The translations under genes and the position numbers were made by a program. The notes beneath the pieces were generated by a model that had not been told where the DNA came from, searched no databases, and was given only the letters and a program-made list of their open reading frames with translations. Below are positions 527 to 63,890 of a stretch of 64,000 nt of DNA, piece after piece. Positions within the stretch are counted from its first letter, which is position 1. Each line of letters starts with the position of its first letter. Source of the DNA: an uncultured Clostridia bacterium (GTDB lineage: Bacteria; Bacillota; Clostridia; Oscillospirales; JAAYOS01); NCBI GenBank assembly GCA_947630675.1, contig CANRIN010000003.1, positions 4,530 through 68,529 of the forward strand, given 5' to 3'.

Positions 527-871
527 AAGCCTCGCAGAGAATGCGCCCTTGAACTCATACCGCATCAGACCTCGGCGCTCCGCGCCGACGTCCCAACAAA
601 GCCTCGCAGAGTTTCGCCGCTTTGCGGCGAAATAAAGTCAAATACATTTTCGGCGGCGGCGTGTACGTCGCCGAAAATACTTTGCGCGGAGCGTGCGTCG
701 ATTTTCCGCCGAAGGCGGAAAACTCGGCGCGTAGCGCAGCGAAAGGCGCCGGCAGAGCATCGCTCTGTCCGGCGGCTTCACTTGAAATTGCGCCTGCGCA
801 ATTTCAAGTGAAAGTCTCGGCGCGAAAGGGTGCGCAGGGCAATTCATTGCCCGAGCACATTTCGCGCCGAC
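527..871 (+). repeat. Mosaic multi-hairpin intergenic repeat, type-I composite (core 598-871) plus extra modules (527-597)
   Basis: Core has the order H1 (agcctcgcagagtttcgccgc-tttg-cggcgaaa), H2 (ttttcggcg..cgccgaaaa), linker gcggagcgtgcgtcga, H3, H4, H5 (779-810), H6 and tail tttcgcgccgac. Near-identical architecture is found at 9885-10151, 46982-47248, 19556-19969 and inverted at 6335-6570. Confidence 0.9.
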
Positions 872-4987: not shown

Positions 4988-6331
4988 ATGACAAAGATGA
5001 AATTCTTCGCCTCTTTTCTGCTGTTTTGCCTTATACTGACGTTTGCCGCGCCGTTCGCCGCGGCTATTGACGACGTTCCGGAGATCTCCGCGAAGTCGGT
5101 CATAATCGCCGAGCCGGAGAGCGGCGAAGTGGTCTACGAAAAGAATGCGGACGACCGCGTGGACATAGCGTCGCTCACGAAGATAATGACAGCGCTCATC
5201 GTGCTCGAAGAGGCGGACATGGATTCGGTCGCGACAGTCAGCTACTCCGCGCTCGACGCGCTCGACCCGGACAGCTCTATAGCGGACCTCCGTCCCGGCG
5301 AGGAGATGCGTGTCGAGGATCTCCTGAAGTGCGTGCTCGTACAGTCCGCAAACGACGCCTGCAACGTCCTCGCGGAGCACCTGTACGGCAGCATCGATGC
5401 GTTCGTCGCGCGGATGAACGAGCGCGCCGGGGAGCTCGGCTGCACGAACACCCACTTCATGAACGCCCACGGCCTCACCGAAGACGGACATTATTCTTCC
5501 GCCCGCGACCTCTACAAAATAGCGCTCGAGGCGCTGAAGCATCCCGAATTCCTCGAGATATGCAACACCGCGCGCGTCGAGATACCTGCAACGAATATAC
5601 ACGAAGCACGGGTGTTCCTCTCCACAAACTACCTTATCTCCGCCCAGAAGATCCCGGACTACGTCTACTACTACGCAAAGGGGATCAAGACCGGACACAC
5701 ATCGGCGGCGGGCTACTGCCTGGCCTCCACGGCAGAGAACAACAACATCGTCTACCTCTGCGTCGTTCTCGGTTCGGAACGCGACCCCGAAACGAACCGC
5801 ATCGGCTCGTTTGACGACACCCGTGCACTCTATGAGTGGGCGTTCGACAACTTCAGCTATCAGCAGATGGTGACGAAGAGCACCGTCGTCGCGGAGATAC
5901 CGGTGTCGCTTTCAAGCGAGGTGGACTACGTCACCCTCGTCCCGGACGGCTCGATAGAGGCGCTGCTTCCGAACGACTTCAATCCCGACGACGTGAAGCT
6001 CGACCTTCACCTCGACTATGAGGACGGCATCGAGGCTCCCGTTGAGAAGGGACAGAAGCTCGGCACCGCGTCGGTGACGTGGAACGGCAAAAGCTACGGC
6101 GAGATAGATCTTGTCGCTCTCGGCAGCGCGAGCCTCGACAAGACGCTGCTCTTTATACAGAACGTGAAGGACTTCTTTGCACGTCCGTGGGTTCTGTGGA
6201 TAGTCATTGCGGCCGCCGCGCTGATAGTCTTCTACATAATCTTCCTTGTGGTGATAAACTCCAGGCGCCGCCGTCACCGCCGCTCGGCCTCAAACTACCG
6301 CGGCTCGAGCAGGAGGAGAAGAAGGTATTGA
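4988..6331 (+). CDS. Serine-type D-Ala-D-Ala carboxypeptidase (PBP5/DacB-like)
   Basis: 447 aa with a signal peptide, SxxK (SLTKIM), SxN (SAND) and KTG (KTGHT) motifs, a PBP5 C-terminal domain and a C-terminal TM anchor with an Arg-rich tail. Confidence 0.9.
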   Translation: MTKMKFFASFLLFCLILTFAAPFAAAIDDVPEISAKSVIIAEPESGEVVYEKNADDRVDIASLTKIMTALIVLEEADMDSVATVSYSALDALDPDSSIADLRPGEEMRVEDLLKCVLVQSANDACNVLAEHLYGSIDAFVARMNERAGELGCTNTHFMNAHGLTEDGHYSSARDLYKIALEALKHPEFLEICNTARVEIPATNIHEARVFLSTNYLISAQKIPDYVYYYAKGIKTGHTSAAGYCLASTAENNNIVYLCVVLGSERDPETNRIGSFDDTRALYEWAFDNFSYQQMVTKSTVVAEIPVSLSSEVDYVTLVPDGSIEALLPNDFNPDDVKLDLHLDYEDGIEAPVEKGQKLGTASVTWNGKSYGEIDLVALGSASLDKTLLFIQNVKDFFARPWVLWIVIAAAALIVFYIIFLVVINSRRRRHRRSASNYRGSSRRRRRY

Positions 6332-6334
6332 TAC

Positions 6335-6570
6335 TTTCGCGGGAAATCGCGTGAGCACGCTGTGCGTGCTCACTTACCAATTTCCCGCGAGGCCGCCGGA
6401 CAGAGCAGAGCTCTGCCGGCGGCAGGCGCTCCGCTACGCGCCGAGTTTTCCGCCTTCGGCGGAAAATCGACGCACGCTCCGCGAGAGGTATTTTCGGCGA
6501 CGTACACGCCGCCGCCGAAAATGATTTGACTCTATTTCGCCGCTCACGCGACGAAACTCTGCGAGGCTGC
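6335..6570 (-). repeat. Mosaic multi-hairpin repeat, type-I copy (inverted orientation)
   Basis: The reverse complement reads agcctcgcagagtttcgtcgc..., attttcggcggcggcgtgtacgtcgccgaaaat, gcggagcgtgcgtcga, ttttccgccgaaggcggaaaa, ccggcagagc..gctctgTccgg. Module order matches 598-871. It starts 4 nt after the dacB-like stop (6331). Confidence 0.9.
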
Positions 6571-6580
6571 TTCTTTCGCA

Positions 6581-6614
6581 AAAATCCGCCGCGCGTCTGC
6601 GCGGCGGATTTTTG
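6581..6614 (+). terminator. Intrinsic terminator of the dacB-like transcript
   Basis: aaatccgccgcgc-gtct-gcgcggcggattttt, an 11-bp GC stem plus T-run, downstream of the repeat element. Confidence 0.75.
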
Positions 6615-9794: not shown

Positions 9795-9841
9795 CGTGTC
9801 TCACCGCAGGACCCCTACATTCCCTACCCTCAAAAGCACCA

Positions 9842-9882
9842 AAAGGACGATACGGCTCCGCCGTATCGTCCTTTTATCTTTT
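9842..9882. terminator. Intrinsic terminator hairpin (bidirectional form)
   Basis: aaaggacgatacgg-ctcc-gccgtatcgtccttt followed by tatctttt on + and ttttgg on -. Confidence 0.65.
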
Positions 9883-9884
9883 AT

Positions 9885-10151
9885 CAGTCTCGCAGAGTTT
9901 CGCGCCTTTGGCGCGAAATAAAGTCAAATTTGTTTTTTCCGACGGCGTGTACGTCGGAAAAAACTCTTTGCGCGGAGCGTGCGTCGAAGACGGCAACGCC
10001 GTCGAGGCGCGAAGCGGAGCGCACGCTGTCGGTAGGGCTTCGCCCTATCCGACAGCTTCACTTGAAATTGCGCAGGCGCAATTTCAAGTGAAAGTCTCGG
10101 CGCGAAAGGGTGCGCAGGGCAATTTATTGCCCGAGCACATTTCGCGCCGAC
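9885..10151 (+). repeat. Mosaic multi-hairpin repeat, type-I copy
   Basis: Same H1-H6 order as 598-871. H5, H6 and the tail are almost identical; H2, H3 and H4 stems are replaced by different but still self-complementary sequences. It ends 4 nt from the stop codon at 10156-10158. Confidence 0.9.
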
Positions 10152-10155
10152 TTCT

Positions 10156-11514
10156 CTAGTTCCTCTGGCTGTGTATCGGCGCGGGGATGCGTCCCCCGCG
10201 CGCGACGAAGCGCTCGCTCGAGCCGCTGTGGACCGGCATCACCGGCGCGCTGCCGAAGAGCCCGCCGTAGCTCACCTCGTCCCCGACTGTCTTACCGGCG
10301 GCAGGTATTATGCGCACGGCGGTGGTTTTGTTGTTTATGACGCCTATCGAGATCTCGTCCGCTATGATGGCGGATATCGTCGACGCCGGAGTGTCCCCGG
10401 GCACGGCGAACATATCGAGGCCGACCGAGCAGACGGCGGTCATCGCTTCAAGCTTGTCGAGCGTGAGCGCGCCCGAGCGGGCAGCGGTTATCATCCCCGC
10501 GTCCTCGCTCACCGGGATGAACGCCCCGCTGAGACCGCCGACGTGGTTCGAGGCCATGACGCCGCCCTTCTTCACCGCGTCATTGAGGAGCGCGAGCGCC
10601 GCCGTCGTGCCGTGCGTGCCGACCGTCTCGAGACCCATCGACTCGAGAACGTCCGCGACGCTGTCGCCCACCGCCGGCGTCGGCGCGAGCGAGAGGTCGA
10701 CTATGCCGAACTCCGCGCCGAGACGTCTGCTCGCCTCCGCCGCGACGAGCTGCCCCATGCGGGTTATCTTGAATGCGGTGCGCTTTATCGTCTCGGCAAG
10801 CTCGGTAAACGAGCAGTCGCCCGCGCGCTTCACCGCCGCCGCGACGACGCCCGGCCCGCTGACGCCGACGTTTATCGCGCACTCCGCCTCGCCCACGCCG
10901 TGGAACGCGCCCGCCATGAACGGGTTGTCCTCCGGGGCGTTGGCAAACACCACTATCTTCGAGCAGGCGACGCTCTCGCGGTCGGCCGTGAGCTCGCTTG
11001 CGCGCTTTATTATCTCGCCGCAGAGCGCCACGGCGTCCATGTTTATCCCGGCTCGCGTCGTCGCGACGTTTATCGAGGCGCAGACGCAGTCGGTCTCGGT
11101 AAGCGCCTCCGGTATCGAACGTATCAGCCGTCGGTCGCCCTTCGTGAAGCCCTTATGTACGAGCGCCGAGTAGCCGCCGACGTAGTTTACGCCGATGGTC
11201 TTCGCCGCGCGCTCGAGCGTGTGCGCGAACGCGCCGACGTAGTCGGTCTCGACCGCGTCGCATAGCAGTGACACCGGCGTCACCGAAATGCGCTTGTTGA
11301 CTATCGGGATGCCGTACTCCCGCTCGATGCTCTCCGCCGTCGGGACGAGCCGTTCGGCGGAGCGGCAAATCTTGTCGTATATCCTCTGCGTCGCGCGGAC
11401 GATGCTGTCCGATATGCAGTCGCGCAGGGAGATGCCCATGGTCACGGTGCGGATGTCGAGGTGTTCCTCCTCGATCATCTTTATCGTCTCAAGAATATCA
11501 AACGTATTAAGCAT
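10156..11514 (-). CDS. UPF0210 (DUF711, PFL-like) family protein
   Basis: 452 aa; [33 protein letters not shown]... is the characteristic UPF0210 N-terminus. It is paired with the upstream small ACT protein as in other Firmicutes. Confidence 0.8.
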
Positions 11515-18972: not shown

Positions 18973-19503
18973 ATGGCAGAAGAACATAAAATCAGGATCG
19001 ATAAGACCCTTGCAGGTAAGATTTTGGATATCGGAGGCGGCGGCGAGGGCATTATCAGCCGGGTTTATCGGCAGCAGGTTACGGCCATTGATAACCTGCA
19101 AGAGGAGCTTGACGAGGCTCCGGACATTTGCACGAAACTATTGATGGATGCGACAGCACTTTCTTTTGACGAGTGTACATTCGACCACGCAACAGCCTTT
19201 TATTCTCTGATGTATATGTCCCGGGAAGAACAAAAGAAAGCGATCGGGGAAGTATACCGGGTTTTGAAGCAGGGCGGCACCTTCCATATCTGGGACACTG
19301 TGATTTCAAGTGCATACCCCGTTCCTTTTGATGTAAGCCTTGAAGTCGATGCCGCCGGGGATATCGTACACACCACCTACGGCATTGTGAAAAGAGATAC
19401 GCAGAATATGGAGCTGTTTGTCGAAATGTGCCGGGAAGCGGGTTTTGTGCTTTCGGAAAAGTCGAGTCGTAACTCTCAATTCTATCTGCGATTTTTCAAA
19501 TGA
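18973..19503 (+). CDS. Class I SAM-dependent methyltransferase
   Basis: 176 aa with SAM motif I ILDIGGGGEG and a post-I acidic residue. Confidence 0.75.
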   Translation: MAEEHKIRIDKTLAGKILDIGGGGEGIISRVYRQQVTAIDNLQEELDEAPDICTKLLMDATALSFDECTFDHATAFYSLMYMSREEQKKAIGEVYRVLKQGGTFHIWDTVISSAYPVPFDVSLEVDAAGDIVHTTYGIVKRDTQNMELFVEMCREAGFVLSEKSSRNSQFYLRFFK

Positions 19504-19555
19504 GTTTGGCAGGTTTGAATTTATCGCCCCACCAACAAAAATTGAATACCACAAA

Positions 19556-19969
19556 AAGCCTCGCAGAGTTTCGCCGCCTGTCATAGACGGGCGGCGAAAT
19601 AAATTTCAATCTCGTTTTTCCGGCGTCAATGCGCCCACCGATTCATTGCGCACCGCAACTTTCTACAGGGCGCATCAGACCTCGGCGCTTCGCGCCGAGG
19701 TCCCAACTGTATACGCACCGTAGGGCGTCGGAAAAAACTCCCTGCACGGAGCGTGCATCGAACGGGCGCAGCTCGTTTCCGCGCTTGTTCGCGCGGTTGA
19801 AGTTGGCGGCTTCGCCGCCAACTTCGCGCAGGGCAATTTATTTGCCCGAGCACGTTTAATCGGAAGGGTTCCCACGCGGTCACTGACCGCGTGGGAATTG
19901 CGAAAGGGTGCGCAGGGCAATTCATTGCCCGAGCACATTTCGCGCCGACGCGGCGCGATTCGCCGCGAC
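19556..19969 (+). repeat. Mosaic multi-hairpin repeat, expanded type-I copy with nested modules
   Basis: Starts with H1 (agcctcgcagagtttcgccgcc...). The H2 arms (tttttccggc / cgtcggaaaaaa) are ~105 nt apart and enclose other modules (gacctcggcgc-ttc-gcgccgaggtc, also present at 569-593). It ends with the H6 tail ...gagcacatttcgcgccgac plus gcggcgcgattcgccgcgac, 3 nt from the stop at 19973. Confidence 0.85.
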
Positions 19970-20830: not shown

Positions 20831-20859
20831 CTGTCCTTCCGTATAGATCAATGTATGAT

Positions 20860-20960
20860 AAGCACTTCCCTACGCCGGCATTACCCGGATCAGGTCAAAG
20901 GGACCCGCGCCTGCGTTTTGACGCGATCACAGCCGGGGATGGCCCCCAGCGCCCCTGCGC
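20860..20960 (-). promoter_or_regulatory. TPP (THI-box) riboswitch aptamer
   Basis: The minus strand reads GGGGCGC..GGCUGUGAUCGCG....GGGUCCCUUUGACCUGAUCCGGGUAAUGCCGGCGUAGGGAAG. This matches the conserved THI element (CUGAGA-like box, ACCUGAUCyGGnUAAUrCCrGCGnAGGGAA). Confidence 0.85.
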
Positions 20961-21009
20961 ATATTCGCTTGTCGGAGCTCCCGGACGGGGCTCCGTTTAC
21001 GGTCAAGTT

Positions 21010-45065: not shown

Positions 45066-45146
45066 CGTTGCCGTTTTGCTTCCGTGATATAATAGCCGCT
45101 TTGCTCCCGCCCTTCGTGCGGAACCGCAAAACATGGCACATTATAG
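45066..45146 (-). repeat. Hairpin repeat module inside the grpE-dnaK spacer
   Basis: gctcccgcccttcgtgcggaaccgcaaaacatggcacattatag is the inverted copy of the module repeated at 60300-60345 and 60409-60454. Confidence 0.8.
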
Positions 45147-46803: not shown

Positions 46804-46830
46804 TTAGCACTCTAGTCCCCCGAGTGCTAA
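46804..46830. promoter_or_regulatory. CIRCE operator (HrcA binding site)
   Basis: TTAGCACTC-tagtccccc-GAGTGCTAA, a perfect match to the CIRCE consensus TTAGCACTC-N9-GAGTGCTAA, 13 nt upstream of the hrcA start. Confidence 0.97.
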
Positions 46831-46981: not shown

Positions 46982-47248
46982 AAGCCTCGCAGAGTTTCGC
47001 CGCTTCAACGGCGAAATAAATTCAAATCATTTTCGGCGGCGGCGTGTACGTCGCCGAAAATACCTCTCGCGGAGCGTGCGTCGAAGACGGCGAAGCCGTC
47101 GAGGCGCGTAGCGGAGCGCTTGCTGTCGGCAAGGCTACGCCTTGTCCGACAGCTTCACTCGGAATTGCGCCTGCGCAATTCCGAGTGAACTTCTCGCGGC
47201 GAATTGGTAAGGGCGCGGATCACATCCGAGCCCGCGATTCGCCGCGAC
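46982..47248 (+). repeat. Mosaic multi-hairpin repeat, type-I copy overlapping the 3' end of the symporter CDS
   Basis: Same H1-H5 order as 598-871. The H5 stem is changed compensatorily (cactcggaattgcgc/gcgcaattccgagtg, 47156-47187). The outer tail stem is tcgcggcgaat/attcgccgcga. Confidence 0.9.
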
Positions 47249-48576
47249 AACAGAAATATGGCGGCGCTTACCGTCGTCCCCGCAAGCGTCCCGCCGTAGC
47301 CGCCCACGGGTGACAGCATACCCACCGCGAGCGCCGCCGCGCCGCCGCATATCCCCGCCGCGAGGAACACGCCCTTCCCCGCGCGCACTCCGAGGAGCGC
47401 CGCCGCCATGGGCACGAGCATGACCGGCGCCCACGCGGAGTAGGCCAAAACGAGCAGCGAGAATACGTCCGCCGAGCGGAGCGCGAGCGCCATTCCTACG
47501 GCGCCCACGGCAGCGGCGGTGAGGCGCATCACTAGGAGCATCCTCCGCCCGTCCGGCTCGCGGCGCGAGAGCGGACGGATGATGTCGCCCATTGCCGTCG
47601 ACGCTGACGCTAAAAGCCCGTCCGCCGAGCTCATGACTATGGCGAGCATCGCCGCCGTCACCACGCCCTTCACCCCCGCAGGGAGGGCGGCGAGCACCAT
47701 CTGCGGCATCGCCGAGGACGGCTCGACCCCCGGCATCGACACGCGCGCCGCGAGCCCGACAAAGCCGGTGAGCATAAATACCGGCACCGACACAAGCCCG
47801 CTCAGTACCGTCGCGCGGGAGATGGTCCTTCTGTCCCGCCCGACAAGCACTCTCTGAAGGTATGTCGGGCTCAGCGCCTCGCCGACAAGCATCGTGAGAA
47901 AGAGCGCCGCCGTCGGCGCGGCGCCGTGCGCGAACGGGCGGAGGAACCCTTCCGGCAGGGACGCAAAGACGTGCTCCGCCCCGCCCGCGTACCTTACCGC
48001 GCCCGCGGCGAGGAGCGGTATCCCCACCGCGAGCAGGCAGAACTCTGCGACCTCCGCCGTGAGTATCGCGCCCATACCGCCCATGACCGAGTACGCTATG
48101 ACTATCGAAAAGCCGATAAGCACCCCCGACGTATAACTCACGCCGAGCAGCGCTGAGAAGATGTTCCCTATCGCCGCGACCTGCGCCGCAATGAGGCCCG
48201 CCGAGAGCAGGACGGAGCACACTCCCGCCATCACCTGCGCCGCGCGCCCGTACGCCGCGCCGACTATCTCCCCCGGCGACTGCGCTCCTTTCGGTATCCT
48301 TGCGCGCGGCAGCAGCACGCCGCCTATCAGTATCTGCGAGAGCGAGAAGCCGCACAGGCCTATTATGTTCGCTATCCCGCCGGAGTAACACTCCGCCGCG
48401 TTCCCTGTGGAAAATCCTCCTCCGATGAACGCCGCCGACAGCGACGCGAACACGACAAAGAGCCCCCGCTTCTTTCCCCCCGTCGCAAAGTCTCCCGCAC
48501 TCTTCACGCGCCGCGCTCCGACCGCTCCGCTGAGGAGCAGGAAGATAAGGAACGCCGCCACTATCAAAATATCCAC
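47155..48576 (-). CDS. Sodium:solute symporter (SSS) family transporter
   Basis: 473 aa with ~13 TM and an SSS-like N-terminus (MDILIVAAFLIFLLLSGAVGARRVKSAGDFATGGKK...). The last ~31 codons are encoded by the repeat element. Confidence 0.8.
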   Translation of the reverse strand: MDILIVAAFLIFLLLSGAVGARRVKSAGDFATGGKKRGLFVVFASLSAAFIGGGFSTGNAAECYSGGIANIIGLCGFSLSQILIGGVLLPRARIPKGAQSPGEIVGAAYGRAAQVMAGVCSVLLSAGLIAAQVAAIGNIFSALLGVSYTSGVLIGFSIVIAYSVMGGMGAILTAEVAEFCLLAVGIPLLAAGAVRYAGGAEHVFASLPEGFLRPFAHGAAPTAALFLTMLVGEALSPTYLQRVLVGRDRRTISRATVLSGLVSVPVFMLTGFVGLAARVSMPGVEPSSAMPQMVLAALPAGVKGVVTAAMLAIVMSSADGLLASASTAMGDIIRPLSRREPDGRRMLLVMRLTAAAVGAVGMALALRSADVFSLLVLAYSAWAPVMLVPMAAALLGVRAGKGVFLAAGICGGAAALAVGMLSPVGGYGGTLAGTTVSAAIFLLSRRIAGSDVIRALTNSPREVHSELRRRNSE

Positions 48577-51583: not shown

Positions 51584-51715
51584 CGTCTGTCAAAAAAGTT
51601 CTGACAAACTTTTTTGACAGATTTTCGCGCGAACCGGCGCGGGATGCCGCCTGCGGCGGCGAAACTCTGCGAGGCTTTTGGGCGGGCTGGCAGTCGTCTG
51701 CTGCCTTCCCGCCGC
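51584..51715. repeat. Hairpin repeat modules (34-nt palindrome + inverted H1 module + GC hairpin)
   Basis: ctgtcaaaaaagtt-ctgaca-aacttttttgacag (51587-51620), then gccgcctgcggcggcgaaactctgcgaggct (inverted H1), then gggcgggctggcag...ctgccttcccgcc. Confidence 0.85.
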
Positions 51716-54190: not shown

Positions 54191-54944
54191 CGTCTGTCAA
54201 AAAAGTTCTGACGAACTTTTTTGACAGAGTTTTTTCACTTCGCTGCGCTTCCCCAAACGGCGTTTCACGCCGCTTGGGGAACCCTTTGATTGAAATGCTC
54301 GCCGGAAATGAATTCCGGCTCCGCGATGTTGCCTTTGGCAACATCAACCGCGCGAACTGGCGCGGAGCGGCGTTTCACGCCGCTTGGGGACCCCTTTGAT
54401 TGAAATGCTCGCCGGAAATGAATTCCGGCTCCGCGATGTTGCCTTTGGCAACATCAACCGCTGCGAACAGCGAAAGCGCAAACCAATTCTTTATCCGACA
54501 TTCTACTGCTTTCGCCCGCAATATTTGCTTTGCAAATATTGCCCGACATTGAGCGAATTGTAGGGCGGAGCGGCGTTTCACGCCGCTTGGGGACCCCTTT
54601 GATTGAAATGCTCGCTCCCGAACACGAGGGCGCCGACATATTCCTCATCGGAGCACATTCAGCCCTCGTGAGCTTTACCCGCTTCGCGGGCAAAGCCGAA
54701 CCTTGATTGTGGTGTGGCTCCGCGATGTTGCCTATGGCAACATCAACCGCGCGAACAGCGAAAGCGCAAACCTGTTCTTCATCCGACATTCTACTGCTTT
54801 CGCCCGCAATATTCACTTCGCGAATATTGCCCGACCTCGAGCACGTTCTAGTGCGGAAAGCACCCGTTGCATTTTACTTGAAATACTCCGAAAAAACGAA
54901 TCTAACTCTATTTCGCGCCTGCAGGCGCGAAACTCTGCGAGGCT
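54191..54944. repeat. Large array of hairpin repeat modules, including a 110-bp tandem duplication
   Basis: Modules in order: the 34-nt palindrome at 54194-54227 and ccccaaacggcg-tttca-cgccgcttgggg at 54251-54279. The unit starting cggcgtttcacgccgcttgggga occurs at 54258, 54368 and 54571. gatgttgcc-N4-ggcaacatc occurs at 54325, 54435 and 54724. An ~85-nt module is at 54463-54547 and 54751-54835, and an inverted H1 module at 54911-54944. Confidence 0.9.
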
Positions 54945-54992
54945 CCTGTAAGCAATGATGTCCGGGACATTTTGCCTCTGTGATCAGTGTCA

Positions 54993-57209
54993 TCAGTGCT
55001 CGTAGCCCTTTCGCGTCACCTGAACGACGCCCTGGATGTTCCCAAGCTTTGTCATTATCGTCTTCAGCTCGTTCGTGTCCGCTATCTGCACGACGAGGTT
55101 CACCGCATCGTACCCGTCGCCGAGGACGCGCGCGTTTATCGAAACGACCGTGACCTTCAGCGCTGTGAGCGCCGTCATGACGTCCACAAGGAGATTGGCG
55201 CGGTCGCGAGCGGACAGCTCGAGCCCCGTCACATAGCGCTCGTCCGGCGCCTGTTCCCAGTAGACCTTCACCATCCTGCCTGCCTCGCGCGAGAGGCTTT
55301 CCGCGTTCCGGCAGTCGCTGCGGTGGACCGACACACCGTATCCTCGCGTCACGAAGCCTATGATGTCGTCTCCCGGCACCGGCGTACAGCAGCGCGCGAA
55401 CTTGACAAGGCAGTTGTCCACTCCCTCGACGACGACGCCGTTCTCGCTGCGCTTTGTGACCTTCTTATTCGGCAGCACCGGACTCTCCGGCACGCCCGCC
55501 GCAGGCTGCTCCGCTGCCTTCTCGCCGAGCTTGCCCATACGCGTGAGCTCATCCTTCACGCGGTTTATCGCGCGCATGACGGTGATGCCGCCGTAGCCTA
55601 TCGCCGCGTACATCTCGTCAAGGGAGTTGAAGCTCATTCGCCGGAGTATCTGCGGCAGTACGTCGTCCGAGAGCAGCGAGAGGTCTATCTCGAGCCGCTT
55701 CATGTGCTCCTCGAAGCGGGCGCGTCCTTCGGCGATGTTCTCCTCGCGCGCCATCTTCTTGAACCACTGGCGTATCTTGTTGCGTGCCTCGCTCGTCTTT
55801 GCGAGCTCGAGCCAACCCCGGCTCGGCCCGCGCGCGACCTTGCTTGTCAGCACCTCGACGATGTCGCCGCTCTTCAGCTCGTAGTCGTATCCGACTATCC
55901 TGCCGTTCACCTTCGCGCCGGTCATGCGGTTTCCGACGGCGGAGTGTATAGAGTACGCGAAGTCTATCGGCGTCGCGCCGGCGGGGAGACTTATGACGTC
56001 CCCCTTCGGCGTAAAGACGAACACCTCGTCTGCGAACATGTCTATCTTGAGCATGCTCAGGAACTCGTCCGAGTCGGTGTCCTCCTGTGTCTCGAGGAGG
56101 TTTCGGACCCACTCGAGCTTCTCGTCGAAGTTCTCCTTCGACTCGGTGACGCCGTCCTTGTACTTCCAGTGCGCGGCTATGCCGTACTCGGCGGTGTGGT
56201 GCATCTCCCAGGTGCGTATCTGCACCTCGAAGGGTATGCCCTCCCGCCCAATGACCGTCGTGTGCAGCGACTGGTACATATTCGGCTTCGGCGTGGAGAT
56301 GTAGTCCTTAAAGCGTCCGGGCATCGGCTTATACAGGTCATGGACTATGCCGAGGACGTTGTAGCAGTCGACGACCTCGTCCACGATTATCCGTATGGCG
56401 TAGAGGTCGTATATCTCGTCAAGCGACTTGTTCTGATTGTACATCTTGCGGTAGACGGAGTAGACGTGCTTTATCCTGCCGTGTATCTCCGCCTTTATCC
56501 CGTTTTCGTCGAGACGCGCCTGTATCACCGAGGTGACGTGCTCGAGGAAGTCGTTGTAGTGGCTCTCCCTGTCGGTTATGACGTCCACTATCTCCTTGTA
56601 GCCTATCGGGTCAAGGCACCGGAGCGCTATATCCTCAAGCTCCCACTTCACGCGTGACATGCCGAGGCGGTGAGCAAGCGGCGCGTATATCTCCATCGTC
56701 TCGAGCGCCTTCTCGCGGCGCTTCGGCTCGCTCCATGCCTCCGCAGTTCTCATATTGTGCAGACGGTCGCAGATTTTTATCAGTATCACGCGGATGTCCT
56801 TCGCCATGGCGAGGAACATCTTGCGGAGGTTTTCCATCTGCTCGTCTTCCTTGTAGGTGTACTGCACGCGCGTCAGCTTAGTGACGCCGTCCACGAGCAA
56901 CGCGACGTCCTCGCCGAATTCTCCCGCTACGTCCGCGTAGGTCATGGACGTGTCCTCTATGACGTCGTGCAGGAGCGCCGCCTCGATGCTCCGCGCGTCC
57001 AGACCGACCTCAAAGGCTATCTCCGCCACCGCTTCCGGGTGCATGATATACGGGTCGCCCGAACGGCGGAGCTGTCCGTCGTGCGCGGCGCGCGCGACCT
57101 CGTAAGCGCGGCGGATGTCCGCCGCCGCGTCCGGGTGCACCTTTCCGCACTTCGCCATGAACTCCTCAAATCTGGCGTTCACATCCTCTACCGTCATCGG
57201 TTTACTCAT
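54993..57209 (-). CDS. relA: Bifunctional (p)ppGpp synthetase/hydrolase (RelA/SpoT homologue)
   Basis: 738 aa with an HD hydrolase (HDVIEDT), a RelA_SpoT synthetase domain, and TGS and C-terminal ACT domains. Confidence 0.95.
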   Translation of the reverse strand: MSKPMTVEDVNARFEEFMAKCGKVHPDAAADIRRAYEVARAAHDGQLRRSGDPYIMHPEAVAEIAFEVGLDARSIEAALLHDVIEDTSMTYADVAGEFGEDVALLVDGVTKLTRVQYTYKEDEQMENLRKMFLAMAKDIRVILIKICDRLHNMRTAEAWSEPKRREKALETMEIYAPLAHRLGMSRVKWELEDIALRCLDPIGYKEIVDVITDRESHYNDFLEHVTSVIQARLDENGIKAEIHGRIKHVYSVYRKMYNQNKSLDEIYDLYAIRIIVDEVVDCYNVLGIVHDLYKPMPGRFKDYISTPKPNMYQSLHTTVIGREGIPFEVQIRTWEMHHTAEYGIAAHWKYKDGVTESKENFDEKLEWVRNLLETQEDTDSDEFLSMLKIDMFADEVFVFTPKGDVISLPAGATPIDFAYSIHSAVGNRMTGAKVNGRIVGYDYELKSGDIVEVLTSKVARGPSRGWLELAKTSEARNKIRQWFKKMAREENIAEGRARFEEHMKRLEIDLSLLSDDVLPQILRRMSFNSLDEMYAAIGYGGITVMRAINRVKDELTRMGKLGEKAAEQPAAGVPESPVLPNKKVTKRSENGVVVEGVDNCLVKFARCCTPVPGDDIIGFVTRGYGVSVHRSDCRNAESLSREAGRMVKVYWEQAPDERYVTGLELSARDRANLLVDVMTALTALKVTVVSINARVLGDGYDAVNLVVQIADTNELKTIMTKLGNIQGVVQVTRKGYEH

Positions 57210-60164: not shown

Positions 60165-60274
60165 ATCTCACCTGTCAACGCCCGAGTCCCGCCGCGCGGA
60201 CGGCTTCCCGGGCAAGATAAATTTTCGGAAAAGCTTCGGGCCAAGCGACCCGATGAAACAAACTAATAAGGACT

Positions 60275-60498
60275 TATAGCATATCGCGAAGCGATTGCTA
60301 TAATGTGCCATGTTTTGCGGTTCCGCCCGAAGGGCGGGAGCAAAACGGCATTGAATCAAATATAATAGCCGCTCTGCGGCTATTATAGCATATCGCGAAG
60401 CGATTGCTATAATGTGCCATGTTTTGCGGTTCCGCCCAAGGGGCGGGAGCAAAACGGCATTGAATCAATTTAATAGCCGCTCTGCGGCTATTATAGCA
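60275..60498. repeat. Tandem ~109-bp repeat (2 units + start of a third) built of three hairpins
   Basis: The unit starts at 60275, 60384 and 60492. Each contains tatagcatatcgc-gaa-gcgattgctata, gccatgttttgcggttccgccc-gaag-ggcgggagcaaaacggc and aatagccgc-tct-gcggctatt. Confidence 0.9.
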
Positions 60499-62815: not shown

Positions 62816-62992
62816 ATATCTTTTTCCTCATTAAGTACCAATTTGTCGAACGCCGCTATTTTATCACACCCGGAAACGAGATTCAAGATCCCATCAGCTC
62901 CGCGGGCAAAACTCACGAGGGTAGAATATACTCCGATGCGGAATGTCTCAGCTCCCTCGTACTCCGCTATGTTCGAATAGGAGCTGCACAAG

Positions 62993-63333
62993 GTCGGGCA
63001 ATATTCGCGGAGCGAATATTGCAAGCGAGGGCGGTAGAATGTCGGATGAATAATTGGTGCGTGCCCTCGCGCTCCGCGCCTGTTCGCGCGGTGAAGTCAG
63101 CGGCAAGGCTGCTGACTTCGCGCAGGGGCGATTCATTCGCCCCGAGCATTTTGATTGGAAGGGGCCCCCAACGGTTCCGTAGAAACCGTTTTGCAAAAGC
63201 GGCCAGAGGCCGCTCCGCGCCTGTTCGCGCGGTTGAAGTTGCTTGCCACAGGCAAGCAACTTCGCGGAGCCCCGATTTATTCGGGGCGAGCATTTTAATA
63301 TAAGGGCAGAGCGCCGCTGTCGCGGCGCGGAGT
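62993..63333. repeat. Array of hairpin repeat modules
   Basis: An inverted copy of the 85-nt module of 54463-54547 lies at 62993-63091. It is followed by two ~142-nt units (from ~63071 and ~63213) of the form ctccgcgcctgttcgcgcgg-tgaagt[stem]-[stem]acttcgcg-[gggg..att(c/t)att..cccc]-gagcatttt. The same unit type is at 19783-19862. Confidence 0.85.
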
Positions 63334-63370: not shown

Positions 63371-63447
63371 TGGTGGACCTTCAGGGACTCGAACCCCGGA
63401 CCGGCCGGTTATGAGCCGGCTGCTCTAACCAACTGAGCTAAAGGTCC
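63371..63447 (-). tRNA. tRNA with CAU anticodon (elongator Met or lysidine-modified Ile2)
   Basis: The reverse complement GGACCUUUAGCUCAGUUGGUUAGAGCAGCCGGCUCAUAACCGGCCGGUCCGGGGUUCGAGUCCCUGAAGGUCCACCA folds as a cloverleaf. G1:C72 means it is not an initiator. C4 and C5 in the acceptor stem are reminiscent of tRNA-Ile2. CCA is encoded. Confidence 0.9.
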
Positions 63448-63490
63448 ATATTTGACGATACCGCTACGACTTCGTAGCGGTATCGTCGAG

Positions 63491-63566
63491 TGGCTCCCCC
63501 TGTTGGACTCGAACCAACGACCCTGCGGTTAACAGCCGCATGCTCTACCAACTGAGCTAAGGAGGA
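63491..63566 (-). tRNA. tRNA-Asn (GUU)
   Basis: The reverse complement is UCCUCCUUAGCUCAGUUGGUAGAGCAUGCGGCUGUUAACCGCAGGGUCGUUGGUUCGAGUCCAACAGGGGGAGCCA, with anticodon loop CUGUUAA. Confidence 0.93.
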
Positions 63567-63572
63567 ATGTAT

Positions 63573-63687
<115 letters not shown>

Positions 63688-63815
63688 TACATTTACTTCC
63701 CTCAAGGGAAGTAAGTAGCGAAGAACGTCGTCTTCGTTCCTTACCGCCCTTGCAGTAAAGTCGTTATTCACTTTTCAATCTTGCCTCGGCTCCGCCTGCC
63801 TCAGCGCTTAAAAGT

Positions 63816-63890
63816 TGGTGACCCGTGCGGGAATCGAACCCACGTTTGCGGCGTGAGAGGCCGCCGTCTTAGCCGCTTGACCAACGGGCC
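63816..63890 (-). tRNA. tRNA-Glu (CUC)
   Basis: The reverse complement is GGCCCGUUGGUCAAGCGGCUAAGACGGCGGCCUCUCACGCCGCAAACGUGGGUUCGAUUCCCGCACGGGUCACCA. It has the typical Firmicute tRNA-Glu scaffold and anticodon loop CUCUCAC. Confidence 0.9.

Follow-up and report, generated by a model that had tools for sequence, protein, structure and literature searches.

Intergenic regions of the 64-kb stretch of DNA analyzed here (hereafter the window) carry recurrent arrays of hairpins joined by conserved linkers, and the locus raises the question of whether these arrays serve the genes they adjoin, act as RNAs, or are repeats that spread on their own account. The first-pass annotation read them as a structured 3′-UTR element of the REP/BIME type or a structured RNA. 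We think it probable that they belong to an undescribed family of small, non-autonomous, MITE-like DNA repeats that, in Oscillospiraceae, colonize the 3′ ends of genes and intrinsic terminators.

Copies of the element in the window

All five copies reported previously lie within 1-3 nt of where they had been placed, and the stem variants quoted for H2, H3, H4, H5 and the outer tail are each present as written. Their number was underestimated: the covariance model that had been proposed as a check was built and searched, and it finds seven core copies, accompanied by one fragment. The pattern CTCGCAGAGTTTCG-N9-24-CGAAATA occurs six times in the window, against 0.00 occurrences expected from shuffles. 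Element size ranges from 90 to 750 nt across copies, which are as follows.

528-597, + strand: partial 5′ motif (AGCCTCGCAGAG, 528-539), then truncated module X (540-597); weak model match at 520-561
600-870, + strand: copy 1 (5′ motif 600-616, H1 611-633, H2 646-678, H3 691-737, H4 with bulged T 747-774, H5 777-812, H6 817-870)
6337-6568, - strand: copy 5, inverted and without H5 (H6 6337-6390, H4 6394-6421, H1 6534-6557)
9886-10150, + strand: copy 2 (H1 9897-9919, H2 9932-9964, H3 9977-10022, H4 10025-10056, H5 10057-10092, H6 10097-10150)
19557-19968, + strand: copy 3, expanded (H6 remnant 19909-19948, tail stem 19950-19968)
46983-47247, + strand: copy 4 (H1 46994-47017, H2 47029-47061, H4 47122-47153, H5 47154-47189, H6 47194-47247)
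51586-51676, - strand: mini copy with 5′ motif, short H1, a small hairpin and H4t (model match 51606-51684)
54193-54944, - strand: giant composite copy (5′ motif and H1 54909-54944, H4t 54193-54228; model match 54840-54952)

The 3′ terminal hairpin H4t (TCTGTCAAAAAAGTT...AACTTTTTTGACAGA; 51586-51621 in the mini copy) is found in the window just in the mini and the giant composite copies. The five copies reported first are without a 3′ terminal repeat and keep at most a 5′ remnant, as at the 5′ end of copy 2, CAGTCT|CGCAGAG (CAGTCT at 9885-9890). The interior of the giant composite copy is made of tandem family-2 modules. Copy 3 is a family member, as had been stated, but its extra length consists of two nested foreign repeats: module X (19628-19707), lodged in the H2 loop, and a family-2 module (19780-19904). 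Beside copy 1, a 12-13 nt sequence, AAGCCTCGCAGAG, is duplicated, one on each side of module X at 528-597. The window copies are degenerate composites of a common core, lineage-specific H4-H6 and insertions of two other small repeat families.

Hairpin fold, covariation and module exchange

The predicted fold of copy 1 has a free energy of -162 kcal/mol (z = -10.2 compared with shuffles) on the AGCCTCGCAGAG strand, versus -143.7 on the other strand. Among 12 copies of the window lineage, 98.6% of cells pair, the corresponding figures being 87.0% for shuffles and 34-49% for slid controls, and both sides have changed in 25 of the 56 pairs. In H1 and H2, 96.4% of cells are paired (77.3% in shuffles), and cells changed on both sides number 340 against about 100 in shuffles. 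Since the stems covary, a coding reading is excluded. The bulged T described in the 3′ arm of H4 is present in 11 of the 12 lineage copies.

Covariation accounts for the compensatory stem changes of the first-pass annotation only partly. Copy 4 is retained at the orthologous site in locus L110, where the H1 and H2 variants differ and H6 contains a 125-nt insertion, so that the two copies are distinguished by whole-module swaps and a nested insertion. Part of the change between copies is due to the exchange of discrete module variants and not to point-by-point co-evolution.

The fold also shows a strand preference. Isolated G.T pairs outnumber A.C pairs on the AGCCTCGCAGAG strand by 78 to 15, or by 63 to 15 when unique hairpins are counted (about 4-5 to 1), and two U.G pairs are conserved in H3. 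The AGCCTCGCAGAG strand is the better-folding one in 88 of 106 copies, and it is usually antisense to the adjoining gene. From the wobble bias together with better folding on the antisense strand, it follows that selection of the hairpin fold within the adjoining gene's mRNA is not supported. A count of GNA triloops, used to discriminate between DNA and RNA, was uninformative (32 versus 21).

Gene context, polarity and terminators

Stop codons at 872, 10156 and 19973, and at 6331 for the inverted copy, are 1-5 nt from the H6 end, which bears out the fixed polarity described earlier. They belong, respectively, to a GerM-like gene (872-2146, - strand; stop codon 1 nt past the end of copy 1), a DUF711 gene beside copy 2, a thiamine transporter gene beside copy 3, and a D-Ala-D-Ala carboxypeptidase gene, between whose stop and a terminator copy 5 is situated. 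A symporter ORF (47155-48576, - strand) reads into copy 4 and has its stop within H5. The giant composite copy is downstream of relA (54993-57209, - strand), while the mini copy is in sense orientation with tandem genes on both sides. Copy orientation in the window tracks the adjoining gene. Polarity set by the replication strand was rejected, with four copies on the + and three on the - strand in one replichore-like stretch of uniform GC skew.

The three terminators reported at the far ends of copies were all recovered, two by terminator scoring and one on reading the sequence:

486-514, + strand: intrinsic terminator for the spoVAEB-like gene, which is convergent; immediately 5′ of the X fragment and copy 1 (scored)
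6582-6612, both strands: bidirectional terminator-like hairpin, 10-14 nt past the 5′ motif of copy 5 (read from sequence; scoring covered just 6595-6609)
9841-9875, both strands: bidirectional intrinsic terminator, directly 5′ of copy 2 (scored)

With a stop codon on one side and a terminator on the other, the copies are probably transcribed in antisense by the neighboring gene. As an example, the terminator at 9841-9875 would stop the DUF711 transcript after its antisense passage through copy 2. In such transcripts the copies would be at most additional 3′ hairpins.

The same context was observed in loci fetched from other contigs, in which genes were called by a third-position GC (GC3) heuristic. 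The 67 scorable loci comprise 29 convergent, 27 tandem antisense, 8 tandem sense and 3 divergent arrangements, and gene 3′ ends host 64 of the 67 copies. Of 101 genes on the 3′ side, 87 are convergent. A host hairpin ends no more than 40 nt from the 5′ motif in 63 of 115 copies, most often at a distance of 14 nt. All 54 GC3-supported genes of the window are housekeeping genes according to Pfam, and no functional class is common to the genes that flank the element.

This positional preference is an argument for an element maintained by the host at gene 3′ ends in the manner of REP/BIME, for protection of upstream mRNA from 3′ exonucleases, for aid or backup to termination between convergent or tandem genes, or for binding of a nucleoid or topology protein, with spread through occasional duplication being secondary. 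Three window copies precisely occupy the interval from a stop codon to a canonical terminator and should be 3′ UTR, their hairpins are very stable, and the 3′ hairpin of ancestral-type copies resembles a bidirectional intrinsic terminator (A-run, short GC stem, T-run). REP/BIME and SPRITE repeats provide precedents (for REP/BIME, PMC2817692; for SPRITE, PMC3049150). Nevertheless, we consider this rather unlikely, as close orthologues do without the element: DUF711 genes whose proteins are 98%, 88% and 86% identical continue from the stop codon directly into a plain terminator or the next gene. In addition, the wobble/mismatch asymmetry favors the strand absent from the adjoining gene's mRNA, an invariant 5′ motif and six different hairpins in order are not explained by exonuclease protection, and the flanking genes have no function in common. 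On account of these orthologues, a conserved 3′-UTR element belonging to particular genes is not sustained.

Distribution beyond the window

At least 113 loci carry the exact pattern of 5′ motif and H1. They are distributed over dozens of Oscillospiraceae MAGs and also occur in three species in culture (Papillibacter cinnamivorans, Flintibacter faecis and Hominicoprocola fusiformis). A plasmid collection gave no match to the element, a phage collection gave partial matches to three unannotated fecal "Bacteriophage sp." contigs, and one of 2.9 million viral contigs in IMG/VR carries it. This near-absence argues that the element is neither phage- nor plasmid-borne.

The comparison with Rfam suggested by the first-pass annotation left the element unmatched: at gathering thresholds, Rfam 15 detects just 5S rRNA, tRNAs and a TPP riboswitch in the whole window, and a permissive scan of 480-900 yields sub-threshold chance matches alone. 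A literature survey on the motif sequence, on Oscillospiraceae repeats and on MITEs at terminators found no description of the family.

Element ends, flanking duplications and signs of mobility

Ancestral-type ends were recognized at 12 loci in other genomes, as imperfect inverted repeats of about 18 nt, CAGyyTGTCAAAAAAGCC ... GSyTTyTTyGACAryCTG. At these loci, a locus-specific terminator hairpin of 23-33 nt is duplicated, and its two copies, exact or near-exact, abut the element ends precisely. Relatives of the window copies thus carry both the terminal inverted repeats and the flanking duplications that had been named as marks of a known MITE, although the element itself does not correspond to a known one. 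None of the window copies has a flanking duplication. The five copies reported first are tied to the relatives bearing these features solely through a common core of about 130 nt.

One of these sites adjoins an H+-PPase gene. A contig from an independent sample (L119) has the site filled as in L068, with identical hairpin copies. Among contigs encoding an identical H+-PPase protein, two (L124, L125) have a single hairpin and four others (L121, L122, L123, L126) a related element with variable modules. These empty and filled alleles, which belong to a species other than that of the window, also differ over about 45 nt adjoining the site, and a clean empty site, with one hairpin and the same flanks, was recovered for none of the duplication-bearing loci. 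Among more distant relatives, H+-PPase loci of 97-98% identity differ in downstream synteny, and in PNPase loci of 94-95% identity queG starts 16 nt after pnp. A search for a database record of the window's own DUF711 protein found none.

Known transposases do not typically leave a duplication as long as 23-33 nt and of variable length. The window and the fetched loci yielded neither an autonomous partner nor a transposase bearing these terminal repeats. Eleven same-strand ORFs downstream of the 5′ motif include none that is transposase-like by translation, and look ordinary metabolic. Pfam detects no transposase, integrase or RAYT among the 54 window genes. A tblastn search of the window and about 0.9 Mb of fetched loci for a Y1 transposase gave no match, in what was a weak test with an approximate query. 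In Flintibacter, a second small repeat with the same terminal repeat was observed; a terminal repeat common to two repeats hints at a common enzyme.

Proposed origin of the composite

The family is apparently mobile, and we infer that its units have been mobilized in trans. The ancestral unit, of about 200 nt, would have consisted of the 5′ terminal repeat given above, the invariant single-stranded motif TCGCAGAG, H1, H2, a long H3 interrupted by an internal loop and, at the 3′ end, a terminator-like hairpin, the 3′ arm of which would be the second terminal repeat. Insertion may take place at the base of a host hairpin, by a putative enzyme acting in trans that would cut on both sides of the extruded hairpin, in a staggered or structure-specific way. 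In the lineage present in the window, modules H4-H6 presumably replaced the original 3′ end and the terminal repeats decayed, while module variants would have been traded between copies and two further repeat families inserted into or beside the element. It is because of this 3′ replacement, decay, module exchange and foreign repeat insertion that a six-hairpin composite would be seen today. The fold, residing on the strand opposite to the host mRNA, may be kept for the element's own propagation, as single-stranded DNA or RNA, and the host mRNA is probably not the reason for its conservation.

An internal single-strand fold strongly conserved across a whole bacterial family, together with its strand-specific wobble bias, exceeds what a purely selfish MITE would need and allows for a function as RNA or as single-stranded DNA. 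Carried further, the core (5′ motif and H1-H3) could be the cis-acting single-stranded DNA or RNA part of an undescribed integration system that recognizes terminator hairpins, an extension that we regard as doubtful. Such a system would cut or join at both flanks of an extruded hairpin, thereby duplicating it in full (23-33 nt), and its structure-guided targeting would be distinct from DDE, HUH, serine and tyrosine transposition. One structure-reading mechanism would then account for duplications of hairpin size, a wobble bias that depends on the strand, a fixed polarity and conservation from one genus to another.

The same strand bias can be read as the mark of a multicopy structured RNA with the sequence of the AGCCTCGCAGAG strand, with the 5′ motif as a seed or protein site, H1-H3 as a scaffold and the 3′ hairpin as terminator, dispersed like a retro- or transposon-borne sRNA gene. 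The excess of G.T over A.C, the conserved U.G pairs and better folding of that strand in the large majority of copies agree with it, as does a layout like that of bacterial sRNAs, in which an invariant single-stranded 5′ motif is combined with covarying hairpins and the 3′ hairpin, with its T-run, resembles a terminator. Convergent copies could be transcribed from a same-strand gene upstream, and no terminator intervenes at 19503-19557, upstream of copy 3. We nonetheless judge it improbable. On reading the boundary sequences, no convincing -10/-35 was seen inside or just 5′ of the element, and the roughly 18 nt between the duplication-defined 5′ boundary and TCGCAGAG hold no -10-like hexamer. 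In 27 of 67 contexts a divergently oriented gene begins on the 5′ side, hairpins or terminators are usually upstream of the element, no Rfam family corresponds to it, and at least 100 near-identical sRNA genes per genome would be unusual. Furthermore, folding of single-stranded DNA fits the G.T bias equally well.

Relation to known repeat families

The MITE-like interpretation that we prefer agrees with the element being small, non-coding, multicopy and insertion-polymorphic. With MITEs such as Correia, ERIC and QMITE (PMC10969869, PMC2229807) it shares a length of 100-300 nt, the lack of an ORF, intergenic location, stable predicted transcript structure and presence/absence polymorphism; terminal inverted repeats and direct repeats at the flanks are seen in its relatives. 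MITEs are typically AT-rich, and an example has direct repeats of 7-9 bp (PMC10969869), whereas the duplication in relatives of our element is 23-33 nt long, variable and equal to a GC-rich host terminator hairpin. The element differs also in internal hairpins that covary across a bacterial family, in the loss of terminal repeats from the window copies, and in having no known cognate IS: a related autonomous IS with the same ends was found neither in the window nor among the 11 ORFs.

Pneumococcal BOX, RUP and SPRITE repeats are likewise small non-coding multicopy sequences with stable stem-loops, enriched downstream of CDSs and between convergent genes. BOX has the structure boxA-boxB(n)-boxC with a strain-variable number of modules, SPRITE resembles a Rho-independent terminator, the families cluster and insert into one another, and their insertions sometimes change CDS ends (all PMC3049150). 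Enrichment at 3′ ends and between convergent genes, stem-loops, modules, mutual insertion and altered CDS ends are seen here as well. The element occurs in a different phylogenetic group, the Oscillospiraceae (about 60% GC), and in the homology test against Rfam it matches no curated family. Its core is conserved over many genera, its stems covary heavily and its wobble pairs favor one strand. The regions flanking pneumococcal insertions gave no clear evidence (PMC3049150), while flanking duplications in relatives of our element cover the whole terminator hairpin.

With regard to REP/BIME, the type named in the first-pass annotation, the resemblance is that of an interspersed extragenic hairpin mosaic with conserved linkers and polarity, in high copy number (seven in 64 kb), at gene 3′ ends or within operons, where single-strand folding matters. 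The assignment does not extend to the unit itself. A BIME is one REP palindrome of 20-40 nt repeated in alternating orientation, while the element comprises six different hairpins in fixed order and polarity, with no alternating single unit seen, and has relatives with terminal inverted repeats and flanking duplications.

The strict REP/RAYT version, in which a domesticated IS200-like Y1 (HUH) transposase, present once per genome, reads, disperses and maintains single-stranded hairpins, seems very improbable to us. A cognate RAYT gene usually has REPs on its flanks. HUH enzymes (IS608/RAYT) read a linear motif adjoining a hairpin, and a conserved linear motif beside H1, whose stem sequence varies freely, has the form of such a site; strand-specific single-strand folding and extragenic, high-copy spread are also in agreement. 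HUH/Y1 transposition, however, proceeds without terminal inverted repeats or flanking duplications, the unit is an ordered array of 200-270 nt and not a short alternating palindrome, and neither the weak tblastn test for Y1 (window and fetched loci) nor Pfam (window) revealed the enzyme.

Class C group II introns and elements of the IS110/IS1111 family land beside terminators, REPs and attC sites. In these elements, as presumably in ours, a host stem-loop sets the insertion point and orientation is hairpin-specific. They are not known to duplicate the hairpin, and they carry their own enzyme gene. A group II intron is a six-domain ribozyme of about 400 nt or more, in which domain V is catalytic and the boundaries read GUGYG...AY; a class C intron was rejected here, since the unit of about 200-270 nt is far too small, its ends misfit and Rfam detects no intron domains. 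Integron attC sites were rejected because reading of the copies disclosed no RYYYAAC...GTTRRRY R''/L''-L'/R' boxes, a cassette array because the flanks are core housekeeping genes in mixed orientation and the window has no integrase, and CRISPR and coding-sequence readings on anatomy.

Implications for Oscillospiraceae genomes

Oscillospiraceae are abundant gut bacteria, mostly known through metagenome bins, and the repeat family occupies many of their terminators. If the flanking repeats are true target-site duplications, repetition of whole hairpins would suggest that transposition or integration is guided by the secondary structure of DNA at terminators. The covarying strand-specific fold, the covariance model and the cultured carriers together offer a tractable handle for tracing the enzyme or the RNA function involved.

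The family probably fragments assemblies, and it lengthens or shortens gene calls, as illustrated by the symporter ORF that runs into copy 4. In several DUF711 homologues, the called protein exceeds the usual 452 residues by 60-145. At one locus, the element coincides with a synteny break.

Copies of the element and their genomic setting

The five copies of the composite element listed in the first-pass annotation were borne out at their positions by reading of the sequence and by a repeat finder. Their number is larger than listed, since a covariance model built on the initial ~120 nt recovered seven copies in the window, together with a weak fragment.

Copies of the element in the window (position, strand, description, source)
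600-870, plus, copy 1; sequence reading, repeat finder
9886-10150, plus, copy 2; sequence reading, repeat finder
19557-19968, plus, copy 3, expanded; sequence reading, repeat finder
46983-47247, plus, copy 4; sequence reading, repeat finder
6337-6568, minus, copy 5; sequence reading, repeat finder
51586-51676, minus, mini version of ~90 nt, previously unlisted; covariance model
54193-54944, minus, composite copy of ~750 nt, previously unlisted; covariance model
520-561, weak fragment of the element; covariance model

Six matches to the diagnostic pattern CTCGCAGAGTTTCG-N9-24-CGAAATA were counted in the window, against 0.00 expected. The window belongs to the core chromosome of a Clostridia member (~62% GC). 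The 54 window genes that have support from third-position GC are all housekeeping genes (including hrcA-grpE-dnaK-dnaJ, mutS-mutL-miaA-hfq, ileS, relA, recJ and sporulation genes), and none of the 54 encodes a transposase, integrase, RAYT or TnpB. Rfam matches in the window are only a 5S rRNA, three tRNAs and one TPP riboswitch; no Rfam family corresponds to the element, and no description of it was found in the searchable literature.

An exact-pattern scan covering one genome per species gave at least 113 loci. Among the matches listed are dozens of Oscillospiraceae MAGs from human, chicken, rabbit and ruminant gut, and the cultured Papillibacter cinnamivorans, Flintibacter faecis and Hominicoprocola fusiformis. 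The pattern was present in only one viral contig, and a plasmid collection contained no carrier. In most lineages H2 is followed on its 3' side by a long hairpin, whose internal loop is conserved, and then by a terminator-like hairpin, while modules H4-H6 are confined to the window's own lineage (rabbit-gut "Lapin" bins and relatives).

Conservation of the fold

Copy 1 has a folding energy of -162 kcal/mol (z = -10.2 relative to dinucleotide shuffles), and all previously quoted stem variants are present in the sequence. The proposed compensatory changes held when tested. In a lineage alignment of 12 copies (four compact window copies and eight from the closest genomes), standard pairs occupy 98.6% of cells, compared with 87.0% in shuffles and 34-49% with slid partners; both sides are changed in 25 of 56 pairs, and H4 retains its bulged T in 11 of the 12 copies. 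Covariation of H1/H2 is heavy across 94 copies elsewhere, with 96.4% of cells paired (77.3% in shuffles), 340 cells changed on both sides (~100 in shuffles), and compensatory changes in 15 of 21 pairs, the remaining six being held constant by the search pattern. Some of the "compensatory change" among window copies reflects an exchange of discrete module variants, as is shown by the orthologous copy in L110, a contig of a ~90% identical genome, whose H1 and H2 variants differ. These variants must nevertheless have originated under selection for pairing.

Orientation with regard to neighbouring genes

The element is multicopy, non-coding and strongly covarying, with fixed polarity at gene ends. 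At four window copies a stop codon lies 1-5 nt from the H6 end, in agreement with the first-pass annotation, and at copy 4 (46983) the sodium:solute symporter ORF enters the element and ends inside H5. Terminators had been noted at three loci. Two were found by a consensus scan, while the third was scored only partly and its full hairpin was read from the sequence.

Terminators next to window copies
486-514, recovered by consensus scan
9841-9875, both strands, recovered by consensus scan
6582-6612, full hairpin read from sequence; consensus scan scores only 6595-6609

All three loci share the order gene stop, element in antisense, canonical terminator, and therefore the neighbour's transcript should cross the element in antisense before terminating.

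Gene orientation in other loci was assigned by a third-position GC (GC3) heuristic, which reproduces the window's genes. By this heuristic the 3'-side gene is convergent in 87 of 101 loci, and the 5'-side gene is unbiased (58 to 44). Where both neighbours could be scored (67 loci), the element lies between convergent genes in 29, between tandem genes in antisense in 27 and in sense in 8, and between divergent genes in 3, so the polarity noted in the window is general. Every window copy is oriented according to its neighbouring gene; replication direction was rejected as the source of polarity, as four copies are on the plus and three on the minus strand under uniform GC skew.

Two regulatory sequences were observed near window copies. 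A perfect CIRCE operator, TTAGCACTC-N9-GAGTGCTAA, is located at 46804-46830 upstream of hrcA-grpE-dnaK-dnaJ, with the hrcA promoter region between it and copy 4. A TPP riboswitch (20850-20965, minus) precedes a ThiT/YuaJ-type thiamine transporter whose 3' end bears copy 3.

The folded strand

With G.T and A.C penalized equally by the hairpin finder, isolated mismatches within stems of 108 copies comprise 78 G.T and 15 A.C (63 and 15 in unique hairpins). Of 106 copies, 88 fold better as the AGCCTCGCAGAG strand than as its complement (-162 versus -143.7 kcal/mol in copy 1). The outer stem of H3 retains two U.G pairs in 10-12 of the 12 copies of the lineage alignment. We infer that the G.T bias opposes the mutational skew that the GC skew of the window would predict. 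Together, these features indicate that selection maintains the structure on a single strand, one that in most cases runs antisense to the gene at the adjoining 3' end. The earlier reading as a structured 3'-UTR RNA of that gene is therefore unsupported. The folded species could be RNA from read-through of the other side, or single-stranded DNA during propagation of the element; loop-type statistics on this choice were uninformative. A multicopy structured RNA transcribed from the motif strand would accommodate the strand bias, and is improbable: no promoter was evident by eye inside the 5' boundary set by flanking duplications.

Evidence for present or past mobility

In 12 loci of other genomes, two copies of a locus-specific terminator hairpin (23-33 nt) bracket the element. 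Each duplication takes in the stem-loop and 2-4 nt to its left and right, and directly adjoins the ends of the element, which form an imperfect ~18-nt inverted repeat, CAGyyTGTCAAAAAAGCC ... GSyTTyTTyGACAryCTG. In an independent sample (L119) one such filled site recurs, and its hairpin copies are identical. At locus L026 (Ca. Scatomorpha merdavium) the duplicated hairpins have reverse-complemented loops, AGCCCAGTGGCC versus GGCCACTGGGCC, a pattern that would fit inversion of the loop, template switching inside the palindrome or a cruciform intermediate during insertion.

Insertion is polymorphic. Among contigs encoding an identical H+-PPase protein, two (L124, L125) show one hairpin in a spacer of 56 nt, and four (L121, L122, L123, L126) a related element whose module content differs between samples. 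The DUF711 gene next to copy 2 has orthologues of 98, 88 and 86% protein identity in which a plain terminator or the next gene comes after the stop, without any element. Synteny with the 98% relative (L114-L116) breaks exactly on the element side (window 10150-10160) and is kept on the ACT/S51/NUDIX/FMN_red/MFS side; the repeats may mark breakpoints of rearrangement or favour their formation. The C-terminal ~30 residues of the symporter (window 47155-47270) are element-encoded and wholly different in L110. Several DUF711 homologues in the protein database are annotated with 60-145 residues more than the usual 452, which element-encoded tails may explain.

These observations are best explained, with reasonable though not high confidence, by a non-autonomous element mobilized in trans. 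Its target would be the base of terminator hairpins, perhaps extruded as cruciforms; cuts on both sides of the hairpin, followed by repair, would produce the duplication. Copies in the window's lineage would be decayed, recombined derivatives, now mostly passive 3' hairpin arrays, and the one-strand fold would serve the element's own propagation. A host-selected function like that of REP/BIME is unlikely, though less so than the structured RNA. The first-pass suggestion of a REP/BIME type stands in that the element works partly alike; it lacks the defining feature of BIMEs, one palindromic unit in alternating orientation. A strict REP/RAYT system is very improbable, and no RAYT was found in what was a weak test.

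Closest in behaviour and architecture are BOX/SPRITE-type repeats and MITEs. Unusual in comparison with known families are the hairpin-sized flanking duplication of variable length, the conservation of a covarying multi-hairpin core throughout a bacterial family, and a wobble bias specific to the strand that is antisense to neighbouring genes. An integration system guided by structure and recognizing terminators can be proposed only tentatively.

Nested and neighbouring repeats

Two further small repeat families, module X and family 2, are interleaved with the element in the window.

Nested repeats
19628-19707, module X inside the H2 loop of copy 3
540-597, truncated module X preceding copy 1, between two copies of AAGCCTCGCAGAG (12-13 nt duplication)
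19780-19904, family 2 inserted in copy 3
54252-54860, tandem family-2 units filling the 54193-54944 copy
62978-63300, further family-2 occurrence
L110 3900-4660, family 2

Module X, a separate repeat of about 80-100 nt (AATGCGCCC...GGGCGCATCAGACCTCGGCGCTTCGCGCCGAGGTCCCAAC), recurs in the H2 loop just past GGCGTGTAC in six loci of other genomes (L008, L025, L075, L101, L103, L111). In several genomes it is bounded by TGTAC/GTAC on both sides, and it looks like a site-specific nested MITE. Family 2 is a ~110-125-nt unit, CGCGCGGTTGAAGTTG-hairpin-...GAGCAyTT...GGAAGGG-hairpin, with three hairpins and linkers ...GTTGAAGTTG..., ...GAGCAyTT... and ...GGAAGGG..., found in tandem arrays or as single insertions. 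One such unit accounts for the 125-nt insertion in H6 that the L110 copy has and the orthologous window copy lacks. This nesting parallels that described for pneumococcal BOX, RUP and SPRITE (PMC3049150; PMC10969869). Directly beside a family-2 array, at the window end, are the 5S rRNA gene and tRNA-Met, tRNA-Asn and tRNA-Glu (63371-63890, minus).

A different small structured repeat, …CTGTCATTGCGAGGAGGCC…GCTCCTCGGAATGACAG…, is present in L092, a Flintibacter faecis locus (reverse strand, ~1690-1850 in reverse-complement coordinates). It has the element's terminal sequence (GACTGTCAAAAAAGCC / GGGTTTATTGACACGCTGA) and directly follows the T-run of a terminator, where 5 nt (TAATT) may have been duplicated. 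This suggests that several repeat families are served by one mobilizing enzyme. Another repeat, at 60274-60468 (two 109-nt tandem units) with an inverted partial copy at 45095-45146, has no Rfam match. It comprises an extended -10-like TGCTATAAT followed by the GC-rich hairpin GCGGTTCCGCCCGAAGGGCGGGAGCAAAACGGC, and could be a promoter and leader, a small RNA unit or another repeat family.
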